Position numbers and translations under genes: made by a program
The notes under the pieces: model-generated
What the model was told of the DNA's origin: nothing
The model's input: only the letters and a program-made list of their open reading frames with translations
Database searches by the model: none
In this document: positions 5,989 to 31,278 of the stretch, in pieces
How positions within the stretch are numbered: position 1 is the stretch's first letter
Layout of the letters: every line of letters starts with the position of its first letter
DNA from: a bacterium
GTDB taxonomy: Bacteria > Patescibacteriota > Minisyncoccia > Phycocordibacterales > SBAW01
Length of the DNA stretch: 64,000 nucleotides
Direction of reading: 5' to 3'
Assembly: GCA_037139975.1 (NCBI GenBank)
Contig: JBAXFJ010000002.1
Location: 24,373 to 88,372, forward strand

Positions 5989-6028
5989 GGCGAGCTCCCT
6001 TCCGTTGGGCTCGCCATTTTTCTTTTTT
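5989..6028 (+). terminator. rho-independent terminator after the rlpA-like gene
   Basis: GGCGAGC-13 nt loop-GCTCGCC followed by ATTTTTCTTTTTT. Confidence 0.7.
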
Positions 6029-6051
6029 AGATGAGGTAGAATAGAAAGTAT

Positions 6052-6918
6052 ATGGTCCGAGCAATCCCAGAGTCACGGCTGCGCGAGCGGCGCCGCAGGC
6101 GCCGCGCCTTTGCGCTTGGTCTTTTGTGTGCGTCGACTGTTTTGTTGTGTGTTGGTTTTGTGGCGCTTTCGCACGTGGCATTTTTGCGAGTCACTTCCGT
6201 TACGGTGTCGGGCACCAATGATGGTTTAGCAGAGCAGATACAAGCTTTTGTTAAAAGTAAAATGTCGGGCGCATACTTGCACCTCTTTGCGCGGGACAAC
6301 ATATTGCTGTACCCAAAAAGCAGCATAACCAAAGACCTGTCTGTTCAATTTCCTGAATTAAGAGATGTATGGGTGCGCACGGCAGACGTGCACCACGTTG
6401 AAGTCAGCGTGACCGAACGTCGGCCTGTTGCGCTGTGGTGCGACTCTGGGGTCGGGTCTCAATCCCAATCTCAGTCTTTGTCGGTCTCACCGTTTTTGTC
6501 GCAAGACACGTGTTTTTTCCTTGATGAAAATGGCCTTGCATACAAAGCTGTCGGCGACACCCCCACAACAAACTATCAAAAATATTTTGGCCCTGCCGCA
6601 ACAACCACGCTTCCCCGACAATATCTGACGCCCGATCAGTTTGTGTCGCTGTTTGCATTTGTTCAAGCGCTTGGTGGCAAGGTGCCGAACGAAACCATCG
6701 CTCACGTTTCTGTGGGTGGGCAGGGGAATGCGAATATTTCTTTTGCCAGCGGATTTGAGGTGCGCTTCTTACTCAGCGACAATGCGGGGGATGTGTTGCA
6801 GCGGTTTGTGTTGGCGCAAACAGCGGCACCATTTAGCACGCACAAGCTTTCTGACTTTTCCTATCTTGACCTGCGCTTTGGTGACAAGATTTACTATAAA
6901 TTAAAGGCGACTCCTTAG
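6052..6918 (+). CDS. cell-division protein FtsQ/DivIB-like (POTRA domain)
   Basis: Arg-rich N-terminus, a single TM (FALGLLCASTVLLCVGFVAL), then VTSVTVSGTN...VHHVEVSVTERRPVALW, which resembles the FtsQ POTRA pattern (v.G...v....P.a.W). Confidence 0.5.
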   Translation: MVRAIPESRLRERRRRRRAFALGLLCASTVLLCVGFVALSHVAFLRVTSVTVSGTNDGLAEQIQAFVKSKMSGAYLHLFARDNILLYPKSSITKDLSVQFPELRDVWVRTADVHHVEVSVTERRPVALWCDSGVGSQSQSQSLSVSPFLSQDTCFFLDENGLAYKAVGDTPTTNYQKYFGPAATTTLPRQYLTPDQFVSLFAFVQALGGKVPNETIAHVSVGGQGNANISFASGFEVRFLLSDNAGDVLQRFVLAQTAAPFSTHKLSDFSYLDLRFGDKIYYKLKATP

Positions 6919-11104: not shown

Positions 11105-11572
11105 TTATTGTAGCAATAAGGACGCGATGTGTGGATAGAACACAAATATACCGATGATGAACGCAGTGATGGCACAGATGAGCACTGCTCCTGCGGCCAC
11201 GTCCTTGGTGTCTCGGGCATAAGGGTGATACTCGGGCGAGGTGAGGTCGATGTCTATCTCAATTGCAGTATTGAATGCCTCGGCGGCCAGCACCAAGCCG
11301 CTGGCAAAGACAATCAGTACCCACTCGGCAAGGGTGATGTTGAAGTAGAAACCAAGTGTAATAGAAAATATAATAAGCGCGATGTGGATCCATGCATTGT
11401 GGGTACTGCGCAGCAAGATCCACACGCCTCGCCCCGCATGAGTAAAACTTTTCGCTCGCGCCACAATCGAAAATCGTTTATTTTCTGTAAGCTTTTTCAC
11501 TCCTTTAGTATACCAAGGTTTGAGTGTGCGGGGAGGCAGGAGCTGCCTGCGACAAAGCCGGTGGTCCAGCAC
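11105..11572 (-). CDS. dgkA: diacylglycerol/undecaprenol kinase DgkA family
   Basis: LVLAAEAFNTAIEIDIDL...ARDTKDVAAGAVLI matches the DgkA core (E.lNSAIE...D.....aK.aKD.aAgAVl). The annotated start overlaps the upstream gene by 75 bp, so the true start may be downstream. Confidence 0.6.
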   Translation of the reverse strand: MLDHRLCRRQLLPPRTLKPWYTKGVKKLTENKRFSIVARAKSFTHAGRGVWILLRSTHNAWIHIALIIFSITLGFYFNITLAEWVLIVFASGLVLAAEAFNTAIEIDIDLTSPEYHPYARDTKDVAAGAVLICAITAFIIGIFVFYPHIASLLLQ

Positions 11573-12804
11573 AGCTGGAGCGAGTAGCCGCCCGAGGGGC
11601 GGTCGATGTTGAGCGTGTCGCCCACCAAAAACAGGTCGGGAACGAGGCGCGACTGCATGGTTTTGAAATCCACCTCTTCGAGGCTCACGCCGCCCGACGA
11701 CACCACCGCCTTGTCGGCGCCCAAGAGTCCCGAAACATGCAGCGGAAGTGCCTTGAGCAGTTGCACTAGCTTTGCTCGTTCAAACGTGCGCACGCTGTGG
11801 CTTGCAGTCTCGCCGTCTATTTTTGCAAGCTCGAGCAGTGAGGAAACAAGAGCTTTTGGTACACTTGTTCCAAGTCCAGCAAGAACATTTTTTATTTTCT
11901 TATTACTCTCAACTACGAGCAATTCCTGCAGTTTTTCACGCACCGCTTTGTGGTCGAGATGGGGAAATAAGTCGAGTGATAGGCTTACATCGCCATAGCC
12001 AAGCAGCTCGCCGATGTCGCGGCTCATGTTGAGGATTGTCGGGCCGCTTACGCCAAAATGGGTGAAGAGCAGCTTACCTTTTTGTACTTGCTGCTTTTTG
12101 CCGCCCTGTTCGAGGGTAATTTTAATGTCTGCAAGTGTGACACCGCCGAGCTTCTTGCTCCACGCGTCTTTCGTCGCCACCGGCACAAGCGCAGTACCGT
12201 TCTCCTCAACCGTGTGGCCGAGTTTTTGCAACCACTTGTATCCGTCGCCGGTTGAACCCGTCTCGGGGCGCGAGGTGCCGCCGGCCGCCACGACACACGC
12301 TTTGCTTTGCACCCGTTGGCCACTCTTCAGTTGTATGGAAAATCCGCCAGCTGGCGGAGCATCTGCGCGGGTGATCTGCACAACCGCGGCATCTGTTGTC
12401 ACCGTGACATCACCTTTTTGTATATATTCTACGAGCACATCCCACACCGACTGCGCGCTTTCGCTGGCGGGGAAGAGGCGTCCATCGTTCTCCTCTTTTG
12501 TCTCAAGGCCTCTTTTTTTAAAAAACTCAAGCGTCTCTTTGACGGCAAATTGTGAAAAAGCTGAAAAGAGAAATTGGTCGCTCTTTTTGTATTTTTTTAA
12601 AAGCGCACGCACGTCGGGTTTGTTGTTGGTGATGTTGCAGCGCCCGCCGCCGGTGATGAGCAGTTTTTTACCCAGGGTTTTGTTTTTTTCAAGCAGGAGC
12701 ACGCGCAGTCCGCGCTCAGCGGCTGTGCCTGCAGCCATCATGCCCGCGGGGCCTCCGCCCACCACGACCACGTCCCACACTTTTTCTTCTCGCCCGTTGT
12801 TCAT
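11497..12804 (-). CDS. NAD(P)/FAD-dependent oxidoreductase, HI0933/BaiN-like flavoprotein
   Basis: N-terminal VVVGGGPAGMMAA (GxGxxG) and the GGGRCNITN motif, characteristic of the HI0933 family. 435 aa. Confidence 0.75.
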   Translation of the reverse strand: MNNGREEKVWDVVVVGGGPAGMMAAGTAAERGLRVLLLEKNKTLGKKLLITGGGRCNITNNKPDVRALLKKYKKSDQFLFSAFSQFAVKETLEFFKKRGLETKEENDGRLFPASESAQSVWDVLVEYIQKGDVTVTTDAAVVQITRADAPPAGGFSIQLKSGQRVQSKACVVAAGGTSRPETGSTGDGYKWLQKLGHTVEENGTALVPVATKDAWSKKLGGVTLADIKITLEQGGKKQQVQKGKLLFTHFGVSGPTILNMSRDIGELLGYGDVSLSLDLFPHLDHKAVREKLQELLVVESNKKIKNVLAGLGTSVPKALVSSLLELAKIDGETASHSVRTFERAKLVQLLKALPLHVSGLLGADKAVVSSGGVSLEEVDFKTMQSRLVPDLFLVGDTLNIDRPSGGYSLQLCWTTGFVAGSSCLPAHSNLGILKE

Positions 12805-12843: not shown

Positions 12844-13245
12844 CTATCGTGAAAGGCCTTCCACCAGGCGCATGAGCGCGTCCAGCTTTTTGTTTATTGC
12901 GTCAATCTGTTGTGCGAGTTCGTTTGTATGTGTGGGCGTTGAGGTTGTTGGTCTTTGGTCTTGGTTTTTGCCGTATGGGGTGCGTGAGGGGTAGCTTGGC
13001 TTTCCAGAAAAACTTCGTTCTGATGTGTCGCGCGAGTTAAAGCAGTCACGACAAAATACTGGGCGCTCGCTGCTGGGGCGAAAGGGGACTTCACATGGTT
13101 TGTGGCACTGGCTGCACGTGGCAGAAAAGAGCTCGGCACGGGGTGACGCGCCGCGCGAACTATGTCCACCTGTGAAGCTTTTGTGTGCAAAGCGTGGGCG
13201 GTCGCCACCTGGTTTGAATCCTCCTGATTTTTTAAATGCTGACAT
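12844..13245 (-). CDS. hypothetical zinc-ribbon protein (CxxC-x17-CxxC) with C-terminal coiled-coil
   Basis: CSQCHKPCEVPFRPSSERPVFCRDCF, then a low-complexity linker, then the NELAQQIDAINKKLDALMRLVEGL helix. Confidence 0.4.
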   Translation of the reverse strand: MSAFKKSGGFKPGGDRPRFAHKSFTGGHSSRGASPRAELFSATCSQCHKPCEVPFRPSSERPVFCRDCFNSRDTSERSFSGKPSYPSRTPYGKNQDQRPTTSTPTHTNELAQQIDAINKKLDALMRLVEGLSR

Positions 13246-17559: not shown

Positions 17560-17772
17560 AAGGGAAATTATGACTATCAAACCACGGTAGCATCAGTGAT
17601 TTCTGTTGCTCGTCGGGCTAAGGCAATATTCGAAAGTTCTGAAGCGCACGAAAAACGAGCATTTCTCAACTATTTACTTCAGAACCCGACTGTATCGGGC
17701 AAAACCCTTGTATTTACAATGCGAAAACCCTTTGATGCAGTACTCGAAATAGCTAACTGTCCTCTCGGGCTG
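17560..17772 (+). pseudogene. remnant of a large-serine-recombinase 3' end (copy A1, ~70 codons)
   Basis: Encodes ...AKAIFESSEAHEKRAFLNYLLQNPTVSGKTLVFTMRKPFDAVLEIANCPLG, matching the C-terminus of the truncated recombinase at 19.5-19.7 kb. 17633-17772 is ~97% identical to 19603-19740 at DNA level. No upstream recombinase body. Confidence 0.6.
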
Positions 17773-18457: not shown

Positions 18458-18734
18458 TGGGTGACTCCTTGTCTGAGGAAGTAGAAGTAACTGCTGTCTC
18501 TTGTAAGATAATACAATGTAATGTGATAAATAGCAAGTAGACGTGATGTTTCAAGCAATGAAATGAGTGTGTTTGATTCGATATGTTCTACTTCTGCACG
18601 GACAGTTGGCAATCAGATGTTTCCTTGCCCGTATCGGTAGTTACCCTAAACCAAGTTCATCTCTTTCTGTTGCCAACTGCAGTTGCATTTCAAGTTCATC
18701 TATTACGATTTGTATAGACTCATGGACGGGATTT

Positions 18735-19796
18735 GTGAGGATTGGTTATAGGAATATTGTACTGGATGCAGAGAAGCGATTGCGAAAGGATATAGTTCTT
18801 GACCCTGAGCGGGCGCACCTTATTGAACGTCTCTTTCAGTTGTACGCCTCTGGTAATTATTCGGTTACGACCGCTCTTGCTGAAATTACACGTCTCGGCC
18901 TCCGTAGCCACACTGGCAATCCTCTTGCTCGTAGCAATATTGAGACAATTCTAAAAGACCCTTTTTATTATGGAATGGCTCGCTCAAAAAAATACGGTAA
19001 CTACCCGCACCGCTATCCGCACATCATTACCCGAGAGCTGTTCGAGCAATGCCAAGAGGTATTTCGTGGCCGCCACAAATCGACCTCCAAGCCAGTATCC
19101 GACCTGTTTATGTTTAAAGGGCTTCTGCATTGTGCTAACTGCGGTTGCCTTATGACCCCCGAGCGTAAAAAGGGCTATCTTATCTACTATTCCTGCACGA
19201 ATGCCAGAGGAGTATGCAAGCGGTTATATATACCCGAACAAACCCTCCTAAAGCCCGTACAGAGCGTATTTGAGGCGTTTGAGGCAATGCCCAAGGAAGT
19301 TGAGGAGCGGCTCTTGAGCGAGCTTAGAGCTTCAAACGAGGGCGAAGTTGAGTACCACAAGAAAGAGCTTGTTCGCATCCGCGCCGAGTACGACCGGACG
19401 CAGACCCGCGCTAACTCGCTGATGGACTTGCTCATCGACAAGAGTATTACTAAGGATGATTATGACAAAAAACTGCAAGAGCTAAAAGATAAACAATACC
19501 GTTTGGACATCGAAGCCGAAGAGCATACTCGCGCCGACCATGACTACAAACTCACTATCTCACAAGTGTTTTCTCTTTCTCGAAGGATGGGCGAAATTTT
19601 TAAAAGTTCTGAGGTGCACGAAAAACGAGCATTTCTCAACTATTTACTTCAGAACCCGACTGTATCGGGCAAAACCCTTGTATTTACAATGCGAAAACCC
19701 TTTGATGCAGTACTCGAAATAGCTAACTGTCCTCTCGGGCTGTGTCTCCTGAACAAAATCCGAACTTTTTTCCAAAACAATCCAACTGCTGACTAA
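18735..19796 (+). pseudogene. large serine recombinase lacking its N-terminal catalytic resolvase domain (copy A2)
   Basis: From GYRNIVLDAEKRLRKD onward it aligns with residues ~150-500 of the intact recombinase at 27690..29198 (recombinase domain, Cys zinc ribbon CANCGC...C..C, coiled-coil). The first ~55 codons of ORF 18567..19796 are unrelated junk with stops upstream. The catalytic-Ser region is absent. Confidence 0.6.
19603..19740 (+). repeat. direct repeat of recombinase 3' end (A2), ~97% identical to 17633-17772 (A1)
   Basis: Direct comparison. Both copies end ...cctctcgggctg, and the flanks differ after that. Confidence 0.8.
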
Positions 19797-20011
19797 TCGC
19801 ACGCGCGGAGCGCGTGGTGACTTGAAACTGCCTCGTACGCTCCGATTGAGTGGTGAAGCGAACCAATGCGCCTCGGACACGCTCGCGGACTCGCGTGTGC
19901 AAAAACCAAAAAATTTCCTTGCATTTTCCTCGCGTCTCCTCCCCCCACCCCTCCACCGCGAAGCGGAAAAAGAAATGGAAAGGAAATTTTTGGTTTTGCT
20001 TCGCCGTTTCA
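19741..20011 (+). repeat. element X, copy 1: ~270-bp GC-rich sequence, perfect inverted repeat of 27204-27472
   Basis: The reverse complement of 27204-27472 matches 19741-20011 essentially base for base (tgtctcctgaacaaaatccgaac ... ggttttgcttcgccgtttca). It contains several hairpins (CACGCGC-GGA-GCGCGTG and ACACGC...GCGTGT) and a C-rich tract (cctccccccacccctccacc). Confidence 0.85.
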
Positions 20012-20354
20012 GACTACAAAATGAACATTGGTATTATATCGCTTTGTGATTATTGTGCGTTGTTCATTCCTCCGTCCTCACGGCGACCGAGGCGCCCTGC
20101 TATCCGAGCTTTGTGGTAACTCTAACGCTCGCGAACCACACACAACCGCCTACGCATAGCCCGCTCGCATTCGCTCACGCTGGCTGCTTCGGCGTTGCGT
20201 GTGTTCGCTTGGTGGCTTCGAGAGAGTCTTGTGGTGGCTCTAAAGAATATGGGTTGTGCTAGGGGCACAAATAGATCTGTATGTGCTTGCCCCACCCACC
20301 CAGTGCGCACACAAGCCCGCTCGCAAAGACGAGAGGGTACGAGCGGGAGCTCCC

Positions 20355-23300
20355 TTAATTTAATCCATCGGCCATCAATTCTGCTTGTTTCAAGACATTT
20401 TCAGTCGCAATCAACTGTTCGTCTGGTGGATAGCCATATTTATTCAAGATTCTTTTCACATCACGACGTAATTTCGCGCGAACATTTTCTTTTAGTGTCC
20501 AGTCAATCGTTGCATTGCCTTTGACACTTTTTAGCACCTCCATTGCAATAACTGCTAACTGCTTGTCGCCAAGCACCTCTTTCGCACTCTCACTGTTGGC
20601 AAGGGCATCGTAGAAAGCGAGCTCATCCTCGTTCAAATCCAAACCCTCTCCTCTTTTGTCTGACTGCCTGATGTCTTTAGCGATTTTTATCAATTCTTCT
20701 ATGACCTGTGCTGAAGTCAAAAGATTGTTTTGATACTTACGGATAGCATTCTCAAGCATTTCAGACAATTTCTTGCTCTGAATAAAGTTCTTTCTTGTTC
20801 TCGTTCTTATTTCGTCATTTAAGAGTTTCTTTAGAAGTTCAAGTGCAATATTTTTTCGCTCCATATGCCGTACTTCTTCCAAAAATTCATCTGAAAGAAT
20901 AGAAATGTCTGGCTTCTTAATTCCAGCCGCATCAAATACATCAACAATACCTTCAGAGACAACTGCCTTATCTACTATTTGCCGAATGGCTGTTTCAATT
21001 TCCGCATCAGACTTGCCTCCGCCTGATGGTTCAAACTTTGTCAGACGCGCTTTAATTGCTTGGAAAAAGCCAACTTCGTCTTTAAGTTCCATAGCTTTTA
21101 AATTTGGGACAGACAGCGCAAATGCTTGCGACAATAAACCAACTTGTTTTGTATATCTATTTTTTCCGTCTTCTAATCCCAAAATATGTTCTTGCGCCTC
21201 AAGAATAATCGTCAGTTTTGCTCGCGTGTCACTGACAAAGTATTTTTTATAATCAAAACCATTAAACATCTGCTCAACGATTTCAAACTTCTCCAGCAGA
21301 GTCGCCACGGCTTCATTTTGATCAAGAGTAGGTGCACCTTGTCCGCCACTTGCTGTATAGGTTGCGAGAGCCGACTTCAAATCAGAAGCAATGCCAATAT
21401 AGTCCACAATCAAACCGCCCGGCTTATCCTTAAACACCCTATTCACACGAGCAATGGCTTGCATAAGATTGTGTCCGCGCATTGGCTTGTCCACATACAT
21501 CGTATGTAAACACGGCACATCAAAACCAGTCAGCCACATATCCCGCACGATAACCAAACGAAGTGGGTCCTTCTCGTCCTTAAATCGCTCACCAATAGCT
21601 TTTCGGTCTTGTTTGCTTGTACTGTGCGTTTGCCAATTTTCAGGATCAGAAGATGAAGAAGTCATTACCACTTTTATTGCGCCTTTTTTAAAATCAGTAT
21701 CGTGCCAATCAGGACGAATTTTAATAATCTCTTCGTACAGTTCAACCGCAATCCGACGACTCATACACACAATCATTCCTTTACCTTCAAAAGCTTCTCG
21801 TCTTTTTTCAAAGTGATCCACCACATCAGCAGCAACTACAGCTAATCTGTCTCTGTGACCAACAATGGCCTCTAATTGTGCCCATTTTGCTTTCGCCTTG
21901 TCTTTTGCATTACTTTCTTCACACTCAGTAATTGATTCCACCTCTTCATCGAGTTTAGCCGCTTCTTCTGGCTTCAGATGCACTTTTGCCAGTCGTGATT
22001 CATAATAAATACGCACAGTCGCGCCATCTTCTACTGCTTGTGCGATATCATAAACATCAACATAGCTTCCGAACACCGCCGGTGTTGAGGCGTCTTCTTT
22101 TTCAATAGGTGTTCCGGTAAATCCAATAAACGATGCTGCAGGTAAAGCATCACGTAAATATTTTGCAAAGCCATATTTCGTAAATATTTCACCATCTTTC
22201 TCGGTGGTCTTTGCACCAAATCCATACTGACTACGATGCGCTTCATCAGCGATAACAATAATATTTTTTCTATCAGATAATAAATCAAAATTCACAGCAC
22301 CGTCTTCAGGGAAAAACTTTTGAATAGTTGAAAAGATAATTCCTCCACCAGCAACTTTCAAAAGCTCTTTCAAATTTTGTCGATTTTCAGCTTTTACTGG
22401 ATCTTGCCTGAGCAATTGCTTACATCCAGCGAAAGTATCGAAAAGCTGTTCGTCCAAATCGTTTCTGTCAGTAATAACCACAATCGTTGGATTGTTCAAT
22501 TTTAAAACTGTCTTTCCAGTATAGAAAACCATCGAGAGAGATTTTCCACTTCCTTGCGTATGCCACACGACGCCGGCTTTTCTGTCGCCGTTTTCACTAG
22601 ATGCCACAAGTGTCTTTTCAATCGCCTTATTCACCGCAAAATACTGATGATACGCCGCGATTTTTTTGACAGTAATAACCGATGCCAAACCAGTTTTTTC
22701 ATCTTCTTTTTTTGTTTTTTCAAATACCACAAAATACCCGACAAGATCCAGAAGCACTTGTTTGTTCAACATTCCCTTTGTCAGTGTTTCAATCTGTGGA
22801 ACAGTCGCCTTGTCTTCTTTGTATCCGTCGCTCGATTTCCACGCGAGGAAACGAGAAATATCCGATGAAATAGTTCCCATTTTGGCATCCAGACCATCAG
22901 ACGCCACCAAGGCGGCGTTATAGTAGAAAAGTGAAGGAATGGCGTTTTTGTAATTCTGTAGTTGCGTAAAGGCTTTGGCAACGGTAGCATTTTCATCCAC
23001 CGGATTTTTGAGTTCAATCACCACCAGTGGTAAACCATTTACAAACAAAACCACATCTGGTCGCTTTGTAATATTATTTTCCGTCACCGTGAATTGATTG
23101 CACACTATAAATTCATTGTTCTCGACATTGTCAAAGTCCACCAGTCGCACTTTGTCGCCCTTGATGCCATCCGCTCCCAACACTTCTACTTCTATGCCTT
23201 CGGTGAGCAGGCGATGAAAAGCTTCATTGTTGTCCATCAAGTTTTGGCTCGGCAAGTTGAGCACCATGCGGAGCGCCTGCTCTTTGGCCTCATCCGCAAT

Positions 23301-23468
23301 AGTGGGATTGAGAGTATCAATCGCATGCTTCAAGCGATTCCTCAAAACCACCTGTCCCAAATCAGTGCGTTCTAACTCTTGATCCTCCGGCGACAAATAC
23401 TGCCAACCTTGATTTTCCAAAAGCTCGATGACTAATTCTTCAATTGTTGATTCAAATATTTTAGTCAT
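20355..23468 (-). CDS. hsdR: Type I restriction enzyme, R subunit
   Basis: 1037 aa. SF2 helicase motifs (GSGKS-like [15 protein letters not shown] box [11 protein letters not shown]) and an N-terminal nuclease region, typical of HsdR. Confidence 0.9.
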
Positions 23469-23479
23469 AAATTATATTT

Positions 23480-24091
23480 TTACTTGTCATCAATTTCTCT
23501 GTTTTGAAAATCCACCAAAGCTTCTTTGTATGCTTCGTAATCTGTGGCATACAAAACCTTACTTGGTAATAATGTTATTTTACCAAAGGTAATTTTTTCA
23601 TAATCTTCATCAAATGAATCGTTAAAATCTGTATTCTCTTCATATTTGATTTGAATATCAAAAACAGCCTCTCGTATTTCTCTTTCTGATTTTGCTTGCT
23701 CAACTTTTTCAGTATATTCAATCTTTCTTAGGACCGAACGTTTTTCCATCTGGTTTTCTTCATGCTTCTGATAAAACTTTTTAGAAACAAGAGAAAGCCA
23801 CCATACAAACACAAAAGAAGAAGTAAATGGAATTATGAAAAGATGCAAAACACTTAATACATCAAAACGATACATTTGTGCCATGTAATCCACTTTCAGG
23901 ATTTGCTGCGTTTTCAGAATAGTCTCCTGGTCTGCAAAAAATAGTGTATATACAAACTTCCAATTTGTGACAATCCATGAAATAAGAAAATAAAAATACA
24001 TCGGACTAAAAAGTCGGTCTTGTATTATTTCCCCAGCTTTTTCAAAAGCTTTTGAAGTTGTTTCTGTAATTTTTGATAGTGAGTTTTCCAT
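23480..24091 (-). CDS. hypothetical two-TM membrane protein embedded in the Type I R-M operon (function unknown)
   Basis: 203 aa. TM1 SPMYFYFLISWIVTNWKFVYTLFF, TM2 VLSVLHLFIIPFTSSFVFVWWLSLV, then a charged ~100-aa C-terminal domain. 12 bp after hsdR and 4 bp before hsdS. Confidence 0.5.
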   Translation of the reverse strand: MENSLSKITETTSKAFEKAGEIIQDRLFSPMYFYFLISWIVTNWKFVYTLFFADQETILKTQQILKVDYMAQMYRFDVLSVLHLFIIPFTSSFVFVWWLSLVSKKFYQKHEENQMEKRSVLRKIEYTEKVEQAKSEREIREAVFDIQIKYEENTDFNDSFDEDYEKITFGKITLLPSKVLYATDYEAYKEALVDFQNREIDDK

Positions 24092-24094
24092 AAC

Positions 24095-25360
24095 TTAATT
24101 ATTAAACCCTTTAACACGAACCTCACCTTTCATTAATTTTGGCAAAAGGGTATCGCGGAGAGCGGAGAGGGTTTGGATTTGGAAACAATTACCAGATATT
24201 TTTTCCATAATAGGATCTGCTAACATAAAATATTTTTCTAATACACTTTTTGTTGGGATTAAAAAATCAAAATTATTGACATCATTTTTATTGATATGTT
24301 GCTGAGCCCCACCAGTGGCAGTATTTATAATATTTGAGACATTTTCCACCATCCAATAGTAAAGATAAGAAGAAGAAAATTTCTCATTCGGCAAAAGCCC
24401 TATAACTGATTGATTTCCGGCTGACTCAATTTCCAAGCGACTAATTTGCCCAAGAGTTGCTCCAGTAATTGCAATAACAACCGTTCCTTTCGGCATGAGT
24501 TTCGCTGCTGACTCCTCAAGAGCTTTTTTGGTGATATATGCGGATGGTTCATATATTCTAAAATCATTAACCTTTCCAGAATTTATCCAAGGAACTGTTC
24601 CGTCCTCCCAATACTCTTTTTTTTCTGTATTTGGAGTTCCTCCCAAAATTGTTTGTATTTCATCCCCCAACTTCCCAACTATCCATCCCTCTGGAATTTG
24701 GCTGAGTTCTAAATCAATCATTTTGCGGGTAGCACCGGGAAAATTAAAATTTACAAACCACTCTTTAAAAATCACTTGCGCAATAGCTTCAAGGGTTTTG
24801 TTCTGCTCACGTAAAAGCTCAACCTTGCTATCCAAAGACGACAACACTGCCGCAATGACACGCTGTTCGGAGAGTTCAGGAATCGTAAGTGAAAGACCCT
24901 TCAGCTTAGTAATAGTATATGCTTCTTGAGTAGAACCAATTTTTGCATATGATAAAATTTCTTTTCCCTGTGGAGAAACTATCCAATAAAAAAGAAATTT
25001 CGGAAGCAAATCTTTATAGTTTCGGAACCAAGTCAAATTTCCATCTTTAAAATAAAACTTGAGATCTCTTTCCACCAAGTAAGGATTCCCGAGTGTTCCA
25101 ACTGAGGTTAGTAAAATATCATTTTCTTCAGGGACTCCAAAATTATTTTTTATATCATTATATTTTTCTTCAGATATAAATAATTCAGTTGATATATTGT
25201 GTCCATTATATTTTTCTGTAATTTCTTTCCCTCTAAAAAATGGGATACCAAAAGTTTTGTATTCTTCGGCAAAAATCCTCTTTGACGACGTAATCTCTGC
25301 CACCTTTCCCAATGTCGTCATTTTCCAGCCTTTTGGAATTGTAGAAGTTTGATCTGCCAT
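24095..25360 (-). CDS. hsdS: Type I restriction-modification specificity subunit
   Basis: 421 aa with two target-recognition-domain halves separated by conserved repeat regions (LSEQRVIAAVLSSLDSKVELLREQNKTLEAIAQVIFKEWF and LPKLMKGEV). Confidence 0.85.
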   Translation of the reverse strand: MADQTSTIPKGWKMTTLGKVAEITSSKRIFAEEYKTFGIPFFRGKEITEKYNGHNISTELFISEEKYNDIKNNFGVPEENDILLTSVGTLGNPYLVERDLKFYFKDGNLTWFRNYKDLLPKFLFYWIVSPQGKEILSYAKIGSTQEAYTITKLKGLSLTIPELSEQRVIAAVLSSLDSKVELLREQNKTLEAIAQVIFKEWFVNFNFPGATRKMIDLELSQIPEGWIVGKLGDEIQTILGGTPNTEKKEYWEDGTVPWINSGKVNDFRIYEPSAYITKKALEESAAKLMPKGTVVIAITGATLGQISRLEIESAGNQSVIGLLPNEKFSSSYLYYWMVENVSNIINTATGGAQQHINKNDVNNFDFLIPTKSVLEKYFMLADPIMEKISGNCFQIQTLSALRDTLLPKLMKGEVRVKGFNN

Positions 25361-25362
25361 AA

Positions 25363-26910
25363 TTATTCTAAATTAAACCCAACATTTTTGAGTTGTTTTT
25401 TTATTTCTTCATCCAATTTCTTTTCTTCGGCCATCTGCTCTGCGAGTTTAGTGGTCAATCCAGCGATTTTGTCGGCAAACGGAATACCGTCGTCAATTTC
25501 ATCTTCTATACCGACATATCTTCCCGGAGTAAGAACAAAATTATGTTTGGTGATTTCCTCTATGCCCGCTGATTTGCAAAAACCTTTGATGTCTTTGTAT
25601 TTACCATCGCGCTTGCGCCACTCATGATAGGTGCCGGCGACTTTTGCCATATCGTCTTCTGAAAATTCACGGTGTGTTTTGTCTGCCATGTGGCCGACTT
25701 CGCTCGTGTCGATGAAAAGAATTTCTCCTGTGCGCTTCCTGTCGCCATTACCTGTGCGCTTGCGCGAGATAAACCAAATACACGCCGGAATGCCAGTGTT
25801 ATAAAAAAGCTGTTTCGGAAGTGCAACGATACAATCCACCAAATCATTTTCAATCAGTGACTTTCTAATATCACCCTCATTGTTGGTCTGACTGGAAAGT
25901 GAGCCGTTCGCAAGCACACACGCCATTACACCATGTGGTGAGAGGTGGTAGATCATGTGCTGAAGCCACGCATAGTTGGCATTTGAAGCTGGAGGCATAC
26001 CGTATTGCCAACGTGGATCATTTTGGAGAAGTTGCCCAGACCAGTCGCTGTCATTGAAAGGCGGATTTGCTAAGACAAAATCGGCTTTAAGGTCTTTATG
26101 TGTGTCATTCAAAAATGAGCCTTCAGTGTTCCATTTCACTTGTGAGCCATCAATGCCACGAATAGCAAGGTTCATTCGGCACAAGCGGTATGTTGTTTGG
26201 TTACTTTCTTGTCCGTAAATAGAAATATCCTCAACATTTCCTCGATGTTCTTTGATGAATTTTTCACTCATAATAAACATCCCGCCACTACCACAAGCTG
26301 GGTCATATACTCTGCCTTTGTATGGCTCAATCATTTCCACCATGATGCGGACGATTGATTTTGGCGTGTAGAATTGTCCGCCTTTTTTACCTTCAGCGTT
26401 TGCAAATTCACCAAGGAAATACTCATATACTCTACCGAGTAAATCTTTACTTTTTGCCGCTTCGGTACCAAGGGCGATATTGCCGACCATATCAATGAGT
26501 CCGCCAAGCGATGCTTTGTCTAGATTTGGGCGGGCGTATACTTTTGGCAAAATACCTTTGAGTGTCGGATTTTCCTTTTCTATTGCCTCCATGGCGTCGT
26601 CGAGGTCTTTTCCAATAGACGGAAGTTTGGCGCGTGAGTGAAGATATGACCAACGGGCAATTTGCGGAACGAAAAAGACATTTTCTGCGCGATATTCATC
26701 GGCGTCTTCAGGATTCGCTCCATAAAAATCATTACCACCGGCTTTTATCTTTGCATACAACTCTTCAAATGAATCCGAAATGTATTTGAGAAAGATGAGT
26801 CCAAGCACAATATGCTTATATTCTGCAGCGTCCATATTCTTGCGCAACTTATCTGCCGCCTTAAACAGCGTCTTCTCAAATGATTCTGTTTTGTTGTTTT
26901 CTTTTTTCAT
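25363..26910 (-). CDS. hsdM: Type I restriction-modification DNA methyltransferase (N6-adenine)
   Basis: 515 aa. NPPF motif ([12 protein letters not shown]), SAM-binding [10 protein letters not shown], and an HsdM N-terminal domain. Confidence 0.9.
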
Positions 26911-26912
26911 AA

Positions 26913-27110
26913 TTATTTCTGTATCAAGTCATCAACCTTGATTTCGAGTGCCTTGGCTATTTTAGACAAGGTGTCGATTGTGGGGTTTTGATTGACTCCA
27001 TTCTCAATCTTAACAATCGTATTGAGAGACAAATCGGCAAGTCGAGCGACTTTTTCGAGGGAATAGCCTTTTTCGGCTCTGATCTTTTTTAAATTGCTTG
27101 CAATGCTCAT
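26913..27110 (-). CDS. XRE-family helix-turn-helix transcriptional regulator (controller-like, first gene of the R-M operon)
   Basis: 65 aa: [32 protein letters not shown]. It ends 3 nt before the hsdM start. Confidence 0.7.
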
Positions 27111-27203
27111 ATGAAATCTTGTATAATTTAGTATATAGAATATAATATAAATTATGGATTCTTTACATTTAAATCATACCGAATTTATGAGCAAAAGTAA
27201 ATA

Positions 27204-27472
27204 TGAAACGGCGAAGCAAAACCAAAAATTTCCTTTCCATTTCTTTTTCCGCTTCGCGGTGGAGGGGTGGGGGGAGGAGACGCGAGGAAAATGCAAGGAA
27301 ATTTTTTGGTTTTTGCACACGCGAGTCCGCGAGCGTGTCCGAGGCGCATTGGTTCGCTTCACCACTCAATCGGAGCGTACGAGGCAGTTTCAAGTCACCA
27401 CGCGCTCCGCGCGTGCGATTAGTCAGCAGTTGGATTGTTTTGGAAAAAAGTTCGGATTTTGTTCAGGAGACA
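27204..27472 (-). repeat. element X, copy 2 (inverted relative to 19741-20011)
   Basis: See copy 1. The outer end joins a recombinase 3' end through the same ...ggctg|tgtctcctg junction. Confidence 0.85.
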
Positions 27473-27475
27473 CAG

Positions 27476-27606
27476 CCAAAATTCAGAATTCGTTTTTTCG
27501 CCAAAATTCGGAGCGTCGCAAAGCGACGCGACGGGGGTTTCCGCCAGAATTCGCCAAGGGTTTTTGAAATCCAAAAGAAGCGAGCGGGACGCGAGGCGGG
27601 GGTTTA
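27476..27606 (-). repeat. recombinase 3'-end repeat B' (perfect 131-bp inverted copy of 29040-29170)
   Basis: The reverse complement is identical to the last 131 bp of the intact recombinase gene (encoding NPRLASRSLLLDFKNPWRILAETPVASLCDAPNFGEKTNSEFWL). Here it continues in frame into X, giving the tail ...CLLNKIRTFFQNNPTAD. Confidence 0.85.
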
Positions 27607-27689
27607 TGATGAGTACATCATTCAAAACTTCGTTTTGCGAGCCAATCTGGAAGCGAATAACTATCAATATTTAACATAAACTTTTTTCT

Positions 27690-29198
27690 ATGAACAAATT
27701 CTTTCTTTACGCCAGAAAATCTACCGACGAGCCCGATCGTCAGATTTTGAGTATTGAATCGCAGATTGACGAGTTGAAAGAATTTGCAGAGCGAGAGCAG
27801 TTAGAGATTGTTGAAACTTTTGTTGAATCACAGACCGCTAAAGAGCCGGGCAGACCTATTTTCAACAATATGCTCTCGCTCATAGAAAAAGGCAAAGCGT
27901 CGGGAATTTTAGCTTGGCATCCCGATAGATTGGCAAGAAATAGTATTGATGGTGGAAAGATAATCTATCTGTGTGACCTCGGTAAAATTAAAGAGCTAAA
28001 ATTCCCGACATTTTGGTTCGACGCTACGCCACAAGGTAAGTTTATGTTAAATATTGCTTTTGGGCAGAGCAAATACTATGTAGATAATCTTTCAGAGAAT
28101 GTGAAGCGTGGACTTCGCCAAAAAGTAAGACGAGGCGAACAAAGTGGTCAAGCACCGACGGGATATTTGAATGACAAGTTGAACAAGAAAATTGTTCCCG
28201 ACATGGAGAGATTTCGCCTCGTCAAAAAAATGTTCGAAGTCTACGCTACTGGAAATTATTCTCTGAAAGATACGAGGAATTTGCTCGCCCAAAAGGGCTT
28301 GGTGTCTAAAAATGGTAAAGTTCTCACTATTTCAAACACGCAAATGATATTGAGAAATCCTTTTTACTATGGAATGTTTTTATTTAACAAAGAACTTTAC
28401 CAAGGAAAGCACGAGCCAGCGATTTCAAAGAAACTTTTTGATAAATGCGCGGAAGTATCGGCGAGGAATGCTCACCCGATGAAGCGAGGAATTAACAAGC
28501 ATGTTTTTCGCGGAATATTTTTGTGTGAAGAATGCGGTTGTGGCATAACCAGCGAAGTGCAAAAAGGTCATACCTATTATCGTTGTACCAAAAAGAAAGG
28601 TGTCTGCACACAAAAATATATCCGCGAAGAATTCCTCGCCGAACAAGCTAATGACATTATCAAAAAAGTTTCTTTGTCGTCAGAGTGGAAAGAATTCATG
28701 CTCGCTGAACTCGACAAGGAACAAGCGAGCAGTTTCCACTCTGACGCCCTTTTCGTTCAAAATCTGAAAAATCAAATCAAAAGTGTTGAGGAGACGCTAG
28801 ACAGGCTTCTTGACGCTCATTTGGACAGCGCCATTACGAGCGAGGAGTATATCGGGAAGAAGCAAAAACTCCTCAACCAAAAGATTGATTTTTCAGAGAA
28901 ATTGAATGATTTTGAACGAAAAGGTAATCGCTGGCTCGAACTTTCTAAACAATTCATTTTAGACAGTAACCAAGCCATAATTATCGCTTCCGAAGAAAAT
29001 CTCGAAGCCAAAAGAGATTTTCTTAAAAAGATTGGCTCGAACCCCCGCCTCGCGTCCCGCTCGCTTCTTTTGGATTTCAAAAACCCTTGGCGAATTCTGG
29101 CGGAAACCCCCGTCGCGTCGCTTTGCGACGCTCCGAATTTTGGCGAAAAAACGAATTCTGAATTTTGGCTGGGATACAGGGATTCGAACCCCGATTAA
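27690..29198 (+). CDS. large serine recombinase (integrase), full length
   Basis: 502 aa. N-terminal resolvase catalytic domain (YARKSTDEPDRQ...SIESQ), recombinase domain, Cys zinc ribbon (CEECGC...C..C) and a C-terminal coiled-coil. The last 11 codons overlap tRNA-Gln on the opposite strand. Confidence 0.85.
   Translation: MNKFFLYARKSTDEPDRQILSIESQIDELKEFAEREQLEIVETFVESQTAKEPGRPIFNNMLSLIEKGKASGILAWHPDRLARNSIDGGKIIYLCDLGKIKELKFPTFWFDATPQGKFMLNIAFGQSKYYVDNLSENVKRGLRQKVRRGEQSGQAPTGYLNDKLNKKIVPDMERFRLVKKMFEVYATGNYSLKDTRNLLAQKGLVSKNGKVLTISNTQMILRNPFYYGMFLFNKELYQGKHEPAISKKLFDKCAEVSARNAHPMKRGINKHVFRGIFLCEECGCGITSEVQKGHTYYRCTKKKGVCTQKYIREEFLAEQANDIIKKVSLSSEWKEFMLAELDKEQASSFHSDALFVQNLKNQIKSVEETLDRLLDAHLDSAITSEEYIGKKQKLLNQKIDFSEKLNDFERKGNRWLELSKQFILDSNQAIIIASEENLEAKRDFLKKIGSNPRLASRSLLLDFKNPWRILAETPVASLCDAPNFGEKTNSEFWLGYRDSNPD
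29040..29170 (+). repeat. recombinase 3'-end repeat B (partner of 27476-27606)
   Basis: See B'. The copy ends ...ttttggctg, where the last bases are the complement of the tRNA-Gln CCA, discriminator and acceptor end. Confidence 0.85.
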
Positions 29199-29239
29199 AG
29201 GCTTCAAAGGCCTCTGTCCTACCATTAGACGATATCCCA
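29166..29239 (-). tRNA. tRNA-Gln (anticodon UUG), 74 nt with encoded CCA
   Basis: Reverse complement TGGGATATCGTCTAATGGTAGGACAGAGGCCTTTGAAGCCTTTAATCGGGGTTCGAATCCCTGTATCCCAGCCA. U1:A72 acceptor pair typical of tRNA-Gln, 7-bp acceptor stem, D-loop GG, anticodon loop CUUUGAA, T-loop TTCGAAT. Confidence 0.85.
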
Positions 29240-29324: not shown

Positions 29325-29801
29325 ATGAAGCTGGTGATTAAAAAAACAAAAACAGGCAAAGGGGTGTTCGCCGGTCAGCAGATCAAAAAAGGTGAGTCCA
29401 TTCGCGCCATGTCCGGCCAGAGGCTTTCGTGGGGCAAGGTCGAGCCGTTGGTGCTCTCGGGCGCACTTAATGTTGACGACCCCTTTCAGGTGGGCGAAAA
29501 CAGCTTTATGGTACTCGACCCCGAGCCACGCTACTTTAACCACTCGTGCGAACCAAACGCCGGGGTGGGTGAGGGGAGTGTCTTGGTTGCTTTGCAGGAT
29601 ATCACAAAAGGCGAAGAAATATTTTTTGATTATTCAACCACGGTGTGCACGCATTGTGAGTGGAAAATGTCGTGCGCGTGTGGCTCAGGGGCATGTCGCA
29701 AGGTGATACGAAACGCCGGCTCAGTCTCAAAAAAGGTTTTGAAAAAATATGTAATGCTTGGCGTCCTTCCACAATTTATTAAAAAAGAACTTTCTATTTA
29801 G
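29325..29801 (+). CDS. SET-domain protein (putative protein-lysine methyltransferase) with post-SET Cys cluster
   Basis: GKGVFAGQQIKKGESI (SET-N), RYFNHSCEPNAGV (NHSCxPN), GEEIFFDYS (ELxxDY), and the Cys cluster CTHCEWKMSCACGSGAC. Confidence 0.7.
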   Translation: MKLVIKKTKTGKGVFAGQQIKKGESIRAMSGQRLSWGKVEPLVLSGALNVDDPFQVGENSFMVLDPEPRYFNHSCEPNAGVGEGSVLVALQDITKGEEIFFDYSTTVCTHCEWKMSCACGSGACRKVIRNAGSVSKKVLKKYVMLGVLPQFIKKELSI

Positions 29802-29826: not shown

Positions 29827-31278
29827 GTGGCAAAAGAAGAAACAATTTTACGATTTGAAGGTGTCTCGTTTGGCTTCGGGCACAACAAGCCTATTTTAAA
29901 AGAGGTCAATTTCAACGTGCGCCGCGGCGCCAAGTTTGCTCTGATGGGTCAAAACGGCGCAGGCAAGAGCACCCTTTTTGGGCTCATTGTGGGCGACACA
30001 CGACCAGAGTCTGGAACGGTTCACACGGCAAAGGGGTTGCGCATCGCCACGGCGCGCCAGGTGATCCCCCGCGAGCAGTTGAGCCTTTCGGTGCGCGAGT
30101 TTTTTGAAGCGTGTTTTAAAGAAAAAGTGTATGCAATTGACCCAAAGATAGAAAAAGTTTTAGAGGCAGTGCACCTGGTCGTTCCGTTTGAAAAAAAAGT
30201 CAAAGAGCTCTCGGGTGGTCAGCAAGCGCGCCTGCTTCTGGCGTCAGCTTTGATACAAGACGCTGACTTGCTCTTACTCGACGAGCCGACCAACAACCTC
30301 GACACGGCGGGCATCGAGCATTTGCGAACGTTCTTGATTGAATACAAAAAGACCGTTGTTGTGATTTCGCATGATGCGGAGTTTTTGAATGCGTTTACTC
30401 AAGGCGTGCTCTACCTCGATGTGCACACGCACCAGCTCGAGCAGTATGTGGGCAACTACTTTGACGTGGTGGCCGACATCACTGCGCGCATAGAAAAGGA
30501 AAATAGGAAAAACGCGCAGCTGGCGCGCGAGATCCAGGCCAATAAAGACAAGTCCAACTTTTTTGCCAACAAGGGCGGTCAGATGCGTCTGGTGGCGCGA
30601 CGTATGCGCGACAAAGCTGAAGAATTGGAAGAACAGATGGTTGACGTGCGCAAGGAAGACAAAACAATTCGCTCGTTCAGGATCCCAGCACAAGAAGAAT
30701 TGATAGGCGAAGTGCTTGGCATCACTTCCTATAGCGTGATGTACGACCACAAACCGGTGACGCGCAAAGCAAAGATCTCTTTGAATCGCGGCGGCCACCT
30801 GCTGCTCCAAGGCCCCAACGGTGTCGGTAAAAGCACGTTGCTCGAGTCGCTCGTCACCGGCGAAGCAAAGGGGAGCACGATCCAAGACGGCGTGCGTGTG
30901 GGATACTATCGCCAAGACTTCTCGACACTCGACTTTGACCAGACGGTGGGGGACGCGCTCTTGAGCGTGATGGCAAAGCCCGAAGAAGAAAAAATGCGAT
31001 CCACCGCTGCGGGGTTTTTGCTCACGGGCGAGCAGGTTCGCACCAAGATCGGCAGTCTCTCTGAAGGTCAAAAGGGATTGGTTGCGTTCGCGCAGCTGGT
31101 GTTGCTCAAACCAGGTCTTTTGATACTCGACGAGCCAACCAACCACATCAATTTTCGTCACATTCCTGCCATAGCCGAGGCACTCAGCGCGTTTGAAGGT
31201 GCGATGGTGCTCGTCAGCCACGTCGGCGAGTTTGTTGCCAAGATCCGCATCGACGAGATACTCGACTTACGTAAATAA
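29827..31278 (+). CDS. ABC-F family ATPase (tandem ABC domains, no TMD)
   Basis: Two Walker A sites (GQNGAGKST, GPNGVGKST), two signature/Walker B pairs (LSGGQQARL...LLLDEPTNNLD, LSEGQKGLV...LILDEPTNHIN), and a charged inter-domain linker. Confidence 0.8.
   Translation: MAKEETILRFEGVSFGFGHNKPILKEVNFNVRRGAKFALMGQNGAGKSTLFGLIVGDTRPESGTVHTAKGLRIATARQVIPREQLSLSVREFFEACFKEKVYAIDPKIEKVLEAVHLVVPFEKKVKELSGGQQARLLLASALIQDADLLLLDEPTNNLDTAGIEHLRTFLIEYKKTVVVISHDAEFLNAFTQGVLYLDVHTHQLEQYVGNYFDVVADITARIEKENRKNAQLAREIQANKDKSNFFANKGGQMRLVARRMRDKAEELEEQMVDVRKEDKTIRSFRIPAQEELIGEVLGITSYSVMYDHKPVTRKAKISLNRGGHLLLQGPNGVGKSTLLESLVTGEAKGSTIQDGVRVGYYRQDFSTLDFDQTVGDALLSVMAKPEEEKMRSTAAGFLLTGEQVRTKIGSLSEGQKGLVAFAQLVLLKPGLLILDEPTNHINFRHIPAIAEALSAFEGAMVLVSHVGEFVAKIRIDEILDLRK

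Follow-up and report, generated by a model that had tools for sequence, protein, structure and literature searches.

In a 64-kb stretch of DNA, referred to here as the window, a short open reading frame that starts with ATG and stops with TAG encodes a SET-domain protein of 158 residues (Table 1). The gene is the first of a block with the order SET-ABC-F-HhH-GPD-PHA_gran-BipA, with a response regulator gene as well as the ABC-F gene between SET and HhH-GPD. On its 5′ side lies a tRNA-Gln gene on the opposite strand, and beyond that a low-GC island that carries a type I restriction-modification (R-M) system and a large serine recombinase. The protein is identical to NCBI entry MEI7719895.1, "MAG: SET domain-containing protein [bacterium]", and the gene is thus already known under this generic annotation; the public copy lies on a 173,832-bp metagenomic contig and recurs in a second sample.

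Table 1. Positions of the SET gene, its sequence features and the neighbouring genes in the window
Feature	Position	Strand	Basis or remark
Low-GC island, outside the SET unit	~19743..29171		GC 0.41 vs 0.51, junction alignment
hsdR (type I R-M, in island)	20355-23468		
ORF of 203 aa between hsdR and hsdS	23480-24091		No Pfam or PADLOC match
hsdS (type I R-M, in island)	24095-25360		
hsdM (type I R-M, in island)	25363-26910		
HTH controller-like gene, 65 aa	26913-27110		Resembles R-M controller and CapH-type regulators
Complete large serine recombinase	27690-29198		Pfam labels
tRNA-Gln(UUG)	29166-29239	-	ARAGORN, Rfam; 85 nt upstream of the SET start codon
SET-domain protein gene, 158 aa	29325..29801	+	ORF call, Pfam SET, exact public match
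SET core, residues 11-104	29355..29636	+	Pfam, homologue alignments, MLL1 alignment
Post-SET Cys cluster, C117-x-C119-x4-C124-R125	29673..29699	+	Conservation, MLL1 post-SET alignment
Two-helix C-terminal extension, residues 136-156, with conserved Y142	29730..29792	+	AF2 secondary structure, conservation
ABC-F ATPase gene	29827..31278	+	Pfam; 25-nt spacer after SET

The SET protein and its predicted fold

Pfam SET (PF00856) matches residues 11-104 of the protein with 49.5 bits (cut-off 22.4; E=6.1e-13), and the match, which spans profile positions 1-105 of 105, places the protein in this family. The core contains the SAM-binding GxG motif (TG11KG13VFA), N72HSCEPN78 and E97EIFFDY103, which together make up the full set of SAM-binding and catalytic motifs (GxG, NHSxxPN and ExxF/YDY with its invariant Tyr). 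It is followed by the post-SET sequence C117-A-C119-GSGA-C124-R, and C75 and C117/C119/C124 are predicted to form a zinc site resembling that of MLL proteins (CxCGxxxCRK).

Conservation was assessed on an alignment of homologues termed A1 (n=41) and on a second, larger alignment (n=81). N72, H73, C75, D102, Y103, C117, C119 and C124 are 100% conserved in the 81 family members, while G11, G13, F15, G31, P77, W113, R125 and Y142 are near-invariant in the homologue alignments. With the cysteine of NHSC and those of CxCx4C all invariant in 81/81 sequences, the protein falls in the KMT2/SET1-like subgroup that has SET plus post-SET. A word-indexed search returned 292 full-length homologues at E<=1e-3, nearly all of 150-200 aa, which puts the SET call far beyond chance. 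Two features are specific to the family, namely the sequence DDPFQ at residues 51-55, within the SET-I insert, and the two-helix C-terminal extension. The initial annotation had described a 158-aa protein with all the SET hallmarks, lying upstream of an ABC-F gene, and had made its reading depend on careful alignment of the active site; the motifs, the gene order and the active-site residues N72, H73, D102 and Y103 all hold up.

An AlphaFold2 (AF2) model of the protein built from alignment A1 (pLDDT 93.9, pTM 0.86) superposes on solved SET domains. Searching the PDB with this model using Foldseek gave the MLL1 SET domain (E=5e-9) and BurB (E=1e-8), with ASH1L, MLL4 and NSD1 also among the top matches. 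The family profile aligns with the MLL1 SET domain at E=1.2e-19 and does so motif for motif, pairing (MLL1 first) GRGLF with GKGVF, RFINHSCEPN with RLFNHSCEPN, GEELTYDY with GEEITYDY, and CNCGAKKCRK with CKCGSKNCRK. In this alignment F101 stands opposite MLL1 Y3942 and Y103 opposite the invariant tyrosine Y3944 (numbers counted back from the MLL1 C-terminus). The Y3942 position is established as the Phe/Tyr switch, equivalent to F281 of DIM-5. The residue at the switch varies across the 81 family sequences (Tyr in 52, Phe in 26, Trp in 3), and since the window protein has Phe there, we predict that it can carry methylation beyond the mono- stage.

The likeness to the eukaryotic SET1/MLL (KMT2) enzymes, which include yeast Set1 and human MLL1-4, is one of the catalytic module only. 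Identity to these proteins is just 24-26%, and the N-terminal regions of KMT2 are absent from the stand-alone 158-aa protein. Whereas MLL1 stops right after the post-SET, the window protein continues into its two-helix extension, and it differs further in carrying DDPFQ in SET-I and, at the switch, Phe in place of Tyr. The KMT2 partners WDR5, RbBP5 and ASH2L are not to be expected in a bacterium. Given its stand-alone form and low identity, we rejected assignment of the protein as a KMT2/COMPASS H3K4 methyltransferase proper.

We also looked for sequence that might direct the protein, which is basic (pI 9.15), out of the cell. No hydrophobic or membrane segment is found in it (the Kyte-Doolittle maximum over 19 residues is 0.75), and residues 3-8 already form strand β1 of the AF2 fold, so that there is neither a Sec/Tat signal nor a spare targeting sequence; the model has no sequence outside the catalytic fold. 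The initial annotation, to which no signal peptide was obvious, was right in this respect. Assignment to the Dot/Icm effector AnkI/LegAS4 (NCBIfam NF043024) was rejected, as the match reaches 12.6 bits against a cut-off of 550 and covers residues 7-34 only.

Genomic setting and the tRNA-Gln junction

A promoter and terminator scan found no terminator-like site between SET and ABC-F, and upstream of SET it gave nothing informative; judged by the sequence between them, the two genes are probably co-transcribed. The BipA/TypA assignment of the last gene of the block rests on an equivalog score of 799.8 vs 757.3. In base composition SET (GC 0.488, GC3 0.566) is close to the non-island part of the window (GC 0.507), while the island as a whole has a GC of 0.407. 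ABC-F, HhH-GPD and BipA have GC 0.52-0.53 and GC3 0.57-0.63, and the recombinase and R-M genes GC 0.41-0.43 and GC3 0.38-0.44.

The same block recurs in related genomes. In the nearest relative (L083), whose SET protein is 70% identical, the order SET-ABC-F-HhH-GPD-PHA_gran-BipA is identical to that of the window, with ABC-F 86%, HhH-GPD 73% and BipA ~90% identical. In L084 (SET 55% identical) SET is found with HhH-GPD-PHA_gran-BipA further along, in L085 (53%) the order is SET-HhH-GPD-VTT-Ogt-PHA_gran-BipA with a one-base gap between the first two genes, and in L004-L009 (48-52%) SET lies near HhH-GPD, BipA or ABC-F. These synteny-sharing genomes are also the ones with which the window protein clusters in a neighbour-joining tree. 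None of the scanned relatives L003-L011 has a tRNA-Gln beside SET, and BLAST of the window tRNA-Gln against L083-L085 found no copy.

The conserved order does not extend upstream. The genes directly upstream of SET in L085 and L008 have their orthologues at 11497-12804 and 12844-13245 of the window. They encode an HI0933-like flavoprotein and a zf_Tbcl_2 protein (L085 3732-5972), and in the window they lie 16 kb to the left of SET and inverted. The intervening DNA of the window encodes an MFS transporter and a class I methyltransferase, and it also contains the recombinase remnants and the island. The displacement of these genes indicates that a variable, island-bearing segment ends just upstream of SET, and that SET heads the conserved block. 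In L084 (4205-5967) SET is directly preceded by an rve-family transposase gene and a truncated gene for a DEAD-box helicase, so that the window is not the only genome in which the 5′ flank of SET is a boundary prone to rearrangement.

Downstream of SET the spacing can be tight. In L085 (6001-8208) and L008 (6001-7141) only 1-4 bases separate the SET stop from the start of the AlkA-like HhH-GPD gene, and L085 has, two genes after HhH-GPD, a gene for an Ogt-type alkyltransferase; SET thus stands beside alkylation-repair genes there, in a possible operon. We found no partner gene that is tightly conserved with SET across the whole family. A different arrangement is seen in 15 of 80 loci (L010, L018, L019, L020, L015 and L011 among them), which belong to another Paceibacteria sub-clade. 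Here SET usually has a gene for a histidine kinase of ~535 aa directly after it, a neighbour confined to this sub-clade, and is preceded by genes for conserved unknown proteins of ~280 aa and ~120 aa and a VTT/DedA-like membrane protein; homologues of these neighbours are absent from the 64-kb window.

Upstream of SET, the 3′ end of the tRNA-Gln gene (29166-29171) lies inside a repeat, Z, on the recombinase side, so this end of the tRNA is a recombination junction. This junction, Z(29040-29171)|tRNA-Gln, is one of four that align in register on a common GGCTG core. The others are X′(17570-17772)|V, X(..19742)|Y(19743-20011) at 19715-20011, and a Z|Y copy that lies inverted at 27204-27604. Two recombinase genes have homologous 3′ coding ends, X in the one and Z in the other, and this, taken with the tRNA junction, places the crossover inside the 3′ end of the recombinase gene and the 3′ end of the tRNA. 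This location supports the view of the initial annotation that SET adjoins a tRNA-Gln att site.

Several further observations concern the structure of the island. When the element integrates at the 3′ end of tRNA-Gln, the C-terminus of the recombinase changes from ...CLLNKIRTFFQNNPTAD to ...GYRDSNPD, and an intact attP-like Z-core-Y copy is present in inverted orientation just upstream of the complete recombinase. A 132-nt inverted repeat (100%) flanks the recombinase gene and a 297-nt inverted repeat (96%) flanks the R-M block; the segments bounded by these repeats could be invertible, or the structure could in part be an assembly artefact. The contig from the second sample (L002) begins inside Z. 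An attP-like 31-mer of the island had no match in viral contigs. A further large serine recombinase gene (18567-19796) has Recombinase and Zn-ribbon domains, lacks the N-terminal Resolvase domain and is 30% identical to the complete recombinase, and a 203-nt fragment of this second recombinase 3′ end is found at 17570-17772 (87% identical); these remnants suggest serial accretion of recombinase elements at the locus. The SET protein itself gave no PADLOC match, and we rejected it as a component of a defence system.

Spread of the family

The initial annotation held SET proteins to be uncommon in bacteria. Published counts of bacterial genomes with SET genes had reached 83 of 390 by 2007 and >500 by 2014 (PMC3980110, PMC10117894), and together with the size of the present family they make this statement untenable. 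In an exhaustive profile search, 1.84 billion cluster representatives (50% identity) were covered. The strictest threshold, E<=1e-30, gave 409 clusters; relaxing it to E<=1e-10 raised the count to 5,323, and E<=1e-3 gave 18,257, a figure that probably reaches well beyond the family and takes in eukaryotic SET proteins. When one genome per GTDB species was scanned, relatives were found in at least 581 species.

Among the best 80 of these at least 581 species genomes, and going by the submitters' own taxon labels, 33 carry Patescibacteria-type names (Adlerbacteria, Paceibacterota, Kaiser-, Nomura-, Berkel-, Uhr- and Moranibacteria, and "Saccharibacteria") and 12 are archaeal, mostly DPANN with Methanotrichaceae and Methanosarcinales in addition; the remainder are from Coxiellaceae, Bdellovibrionales, Verrucomicrobia, Planctomycetes, Cyanobacteria and others. 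Within these 80 the family is over-represented among organisms living on or inside other cells, which would fit a host-directed role too. The literature searched contained no mention of SET domains in connection with Patescibacteria.

CPR and DPANN sequences intermingle in the neighbour-joining tree. In a number of non-CPR loci (L072, L058, L013, L057, L066 and L039, with SET at ~6001-6480) the GC content of SET is 10-18 points below that of its flanks, for example 0.35 vs 0.52 in L072, 0.31 vs 0.43 in L058 and 0.48 vs 0.63 in L013. This suggests recent transfer from low-GC donors, while some of the "Methanosarcinales" and "Verrucomicrobia" labels may instead reflect mis-binning, as the nearest relatives of L076 are mostly proteins labelled DPANN.

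Origin and proposed function

Given that SET starts 85 nt from a tRNA that serves as a recombinase junction, it might be read as cargo of the tRNA-Gln island or as a recently transferred gene, and a link between SET and the integration site was implied by the initial annotation. The family is patchy, the low-GC SET genes in several non-CPR genomes show that transfer does occur in it, and the DNA that precedes SET has been rearranged in comparison with L085 and L008, all of which would agree with such an origin. However, the junction (29171/29172) is inside the 3′ end of the tRNA, with the island on that 3′ side and SET on the 5′ side; SET matches the host rather than the island in GC and GC3 (0.488 vs 0.407 in GC); and L083-L085 and L004-L009 have the same SET block with neither a tRNA-Gln nor an island alongside. 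Nor is a mobile replicon a plausible source, since no phage match was found and the plasmid relatives, mostly from Burkholderiaceae replicons, are at most 32% identical. By junction position, composition and synteny we therefore reject SET as island cargo, the implied link falls with it, and a cargo or recent-transfer origin is in our estimation very improbable. The initial annotation had also made its interpretation depend on signs of transfer in the lineage. In the gene's own sub-clade these are largely wanting, the genes being stable and recent transfer leaving no sign, while elsewhere in the family transfer is evident. We think it likely that SET is resident on the chromosome of an Adlerbacteria-like lineage of Patescibacteria and has been inherited vertically there, and this forms part of the functional reading that follows.

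What the protein does can be accounted for in several ways, of which we favour, as the probable one, a cytoplasmic, stand-alone SET plus post-SET protein-lysine methyltransferase that uses SAM and acts on a protein of its own cell. A rather improbable alternative is that it uses the SET fold to methylate a free metabolite and not a protein lysine, as BurB does. BurB, from Burkholderia thailandensis (PDB 9l4t/9l4v), is encoded in a biosynthetic gene cluster and S-methylates free L-methionine, showing that the SET fold alone does not fix the acceptor (PMC12542666). The window protein is strongly similar to it in fold and profile, and this strong structural match makes a BurB-like role a genuine alternative. 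Yet the family has an invariant MLL-type post-SET zinc cluster and aligns better with MLL1 and Set1, the paper describing BurB (PMC12542666) makes no mention of cysteines or zinc, and none of the genes next to SET (ABC-F, response regulator, HhH-GPD and BipA) is biosynthetic. The other alternative, raised by the initial annotation, is that an episymbiont delivers the enzyme into or onto a host cell, there to methylate chromatin or nucleoid proteins, on the model of the secreted SET nucleomodulins NUE, RomA/LegAS4, BtSET and BaSET. These share with the window protein the SET catalytic fold and a bacterium that depends on another organism, and all act in eukaryotic hosts. Genes near SET are 67-90% identical to those of Adlerbacteria-like MAGs, so that the source is most likely a member of the Patescibacteria, of which every cultivated representative is an episymbiont according to PMC12206443. 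Moreover, members of the family are common in CPR, DPANN, Coxiellaceae and Bdellovibrionales among the best 80 of at least 581 species genomes, and CPR sequences are mixed with DPANN and methanogen sequences in the tree. BaSET is reported in PMC3980110 to be secreted with no recognisable signal, which makes the missing signal in the window protein weak evidence. Still, a signal peptide, a membrane segment and an additional targeting domain are all absent from a protein whose 158 aa are taken up by the catalytic fold; its gene is flanked by housekeeping genes in stable synteny, is native in composition and adjoins no secretion genes; and the hosts known for Patescibacteria are prokaryotic cells without the histone tails of eukaryotes that the known effectors target. 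We therefore regard delivery to a host as unlikely. A variant that avoids the last objection is more speculative, and taken as a whole we hold it to be highly improbable: the family, common to Patescibacteria, DPANN, predators and intracellular bacteria and apparently exchanged among them, would act as a contact-delivered "nucleomodulin" of prokaryote upon prokaryote, methylating nucleoid or chromatin proteins of the host, possibly archaeal histones or the MC1 of methanogen hosts.

For the favoured reading, an endogenous protein-lysine methyltransferase, we infer catalysis, a lysine acceptor, product specificity and an endogenous substrate. S-adenosylmethionine would be bound in a pocket formed by G11xG13, N72-H73 and the zinc-organised post-SET (C75, C117, C119, C124 and W113), and methyl groups would be moved to the ε-amino group of a lysine threaded through a channel lined by Y103 and F101, with the switch Phe permitting methylation beyond the mono- state. 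The target would likely be an abundant protein of the same cell, candidates being a nucleoid-associated or a ribosome- or translation-associated protein. The neighbouring genes for ABC-F, BipA/TypA, the AlkA-like HhH-GPD protein and, in five relatives, a DEAD-box helicase are weak hints that point loosely to translation- or DNA-associated proteins.

There is precedent for an endogenous substrate, in that Go1-SET methylates MC1-α and cpnSET methylates Hc1, as reported in the review PMC3980110. Go1-SET, an archaeal minimal SET protein of Methanosarcina mazei (AAM32541), does so in vitro (Manzur & Zhou 2005, as reviewed in PMC3980110). Compared by description, it resembles the window protein as a small, stand-alone prokaryotic SET protein for which the proposed target is a DNA-associated protein of its own cell. 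Homologues of the window protein that are 37-40% identical come from MAGs labelled Methanotrichaceae and Methanosarcinales. However, a search from the "Methanosarcinales" homologue (L076) returned mostly DPANN-labelled proteins and a few with Patescibacteria labels, and not M. mazei, so that orthology with Go1-SET is at most putative. BurB, set beside the window protein in the same way, differs in that it belongs to a biosynthetic cluster, whereas the window protein has the MLL-type zinc post-SET and no biosynthetic neighbours.

The protein thus represents a compact prokaryotic family, abundant in Patescibacteria and DPANN, that bears a complete KMT2-type SET plus post-SET module. The identity of its substrate would show what role lysine methylation plays in organisms with minimal genomes, and could be relevant to the ancestry, among prokaryotes, of the catalytic module of eukaryotic SET1/MLL. 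The minimal SET unit also occurs in multiples. Three proteins of 1415-1479 aa (P0143, P0144 and P0145) contain 7-8 tandem stretches that match the minimal-SET profile, and the gene for P0143 lies on a 2.44-Mb chromosome record (GCA_003543875.1, CM010680.1; L086 4001-8350) beside genes for an FPL-domain protein and a phosphatidylserine decarboxylase. Other variants are SET proteins with two units and a fusion of SET with a saccharopine-dehydrogenase domain (P0140, P0141 and P0146).
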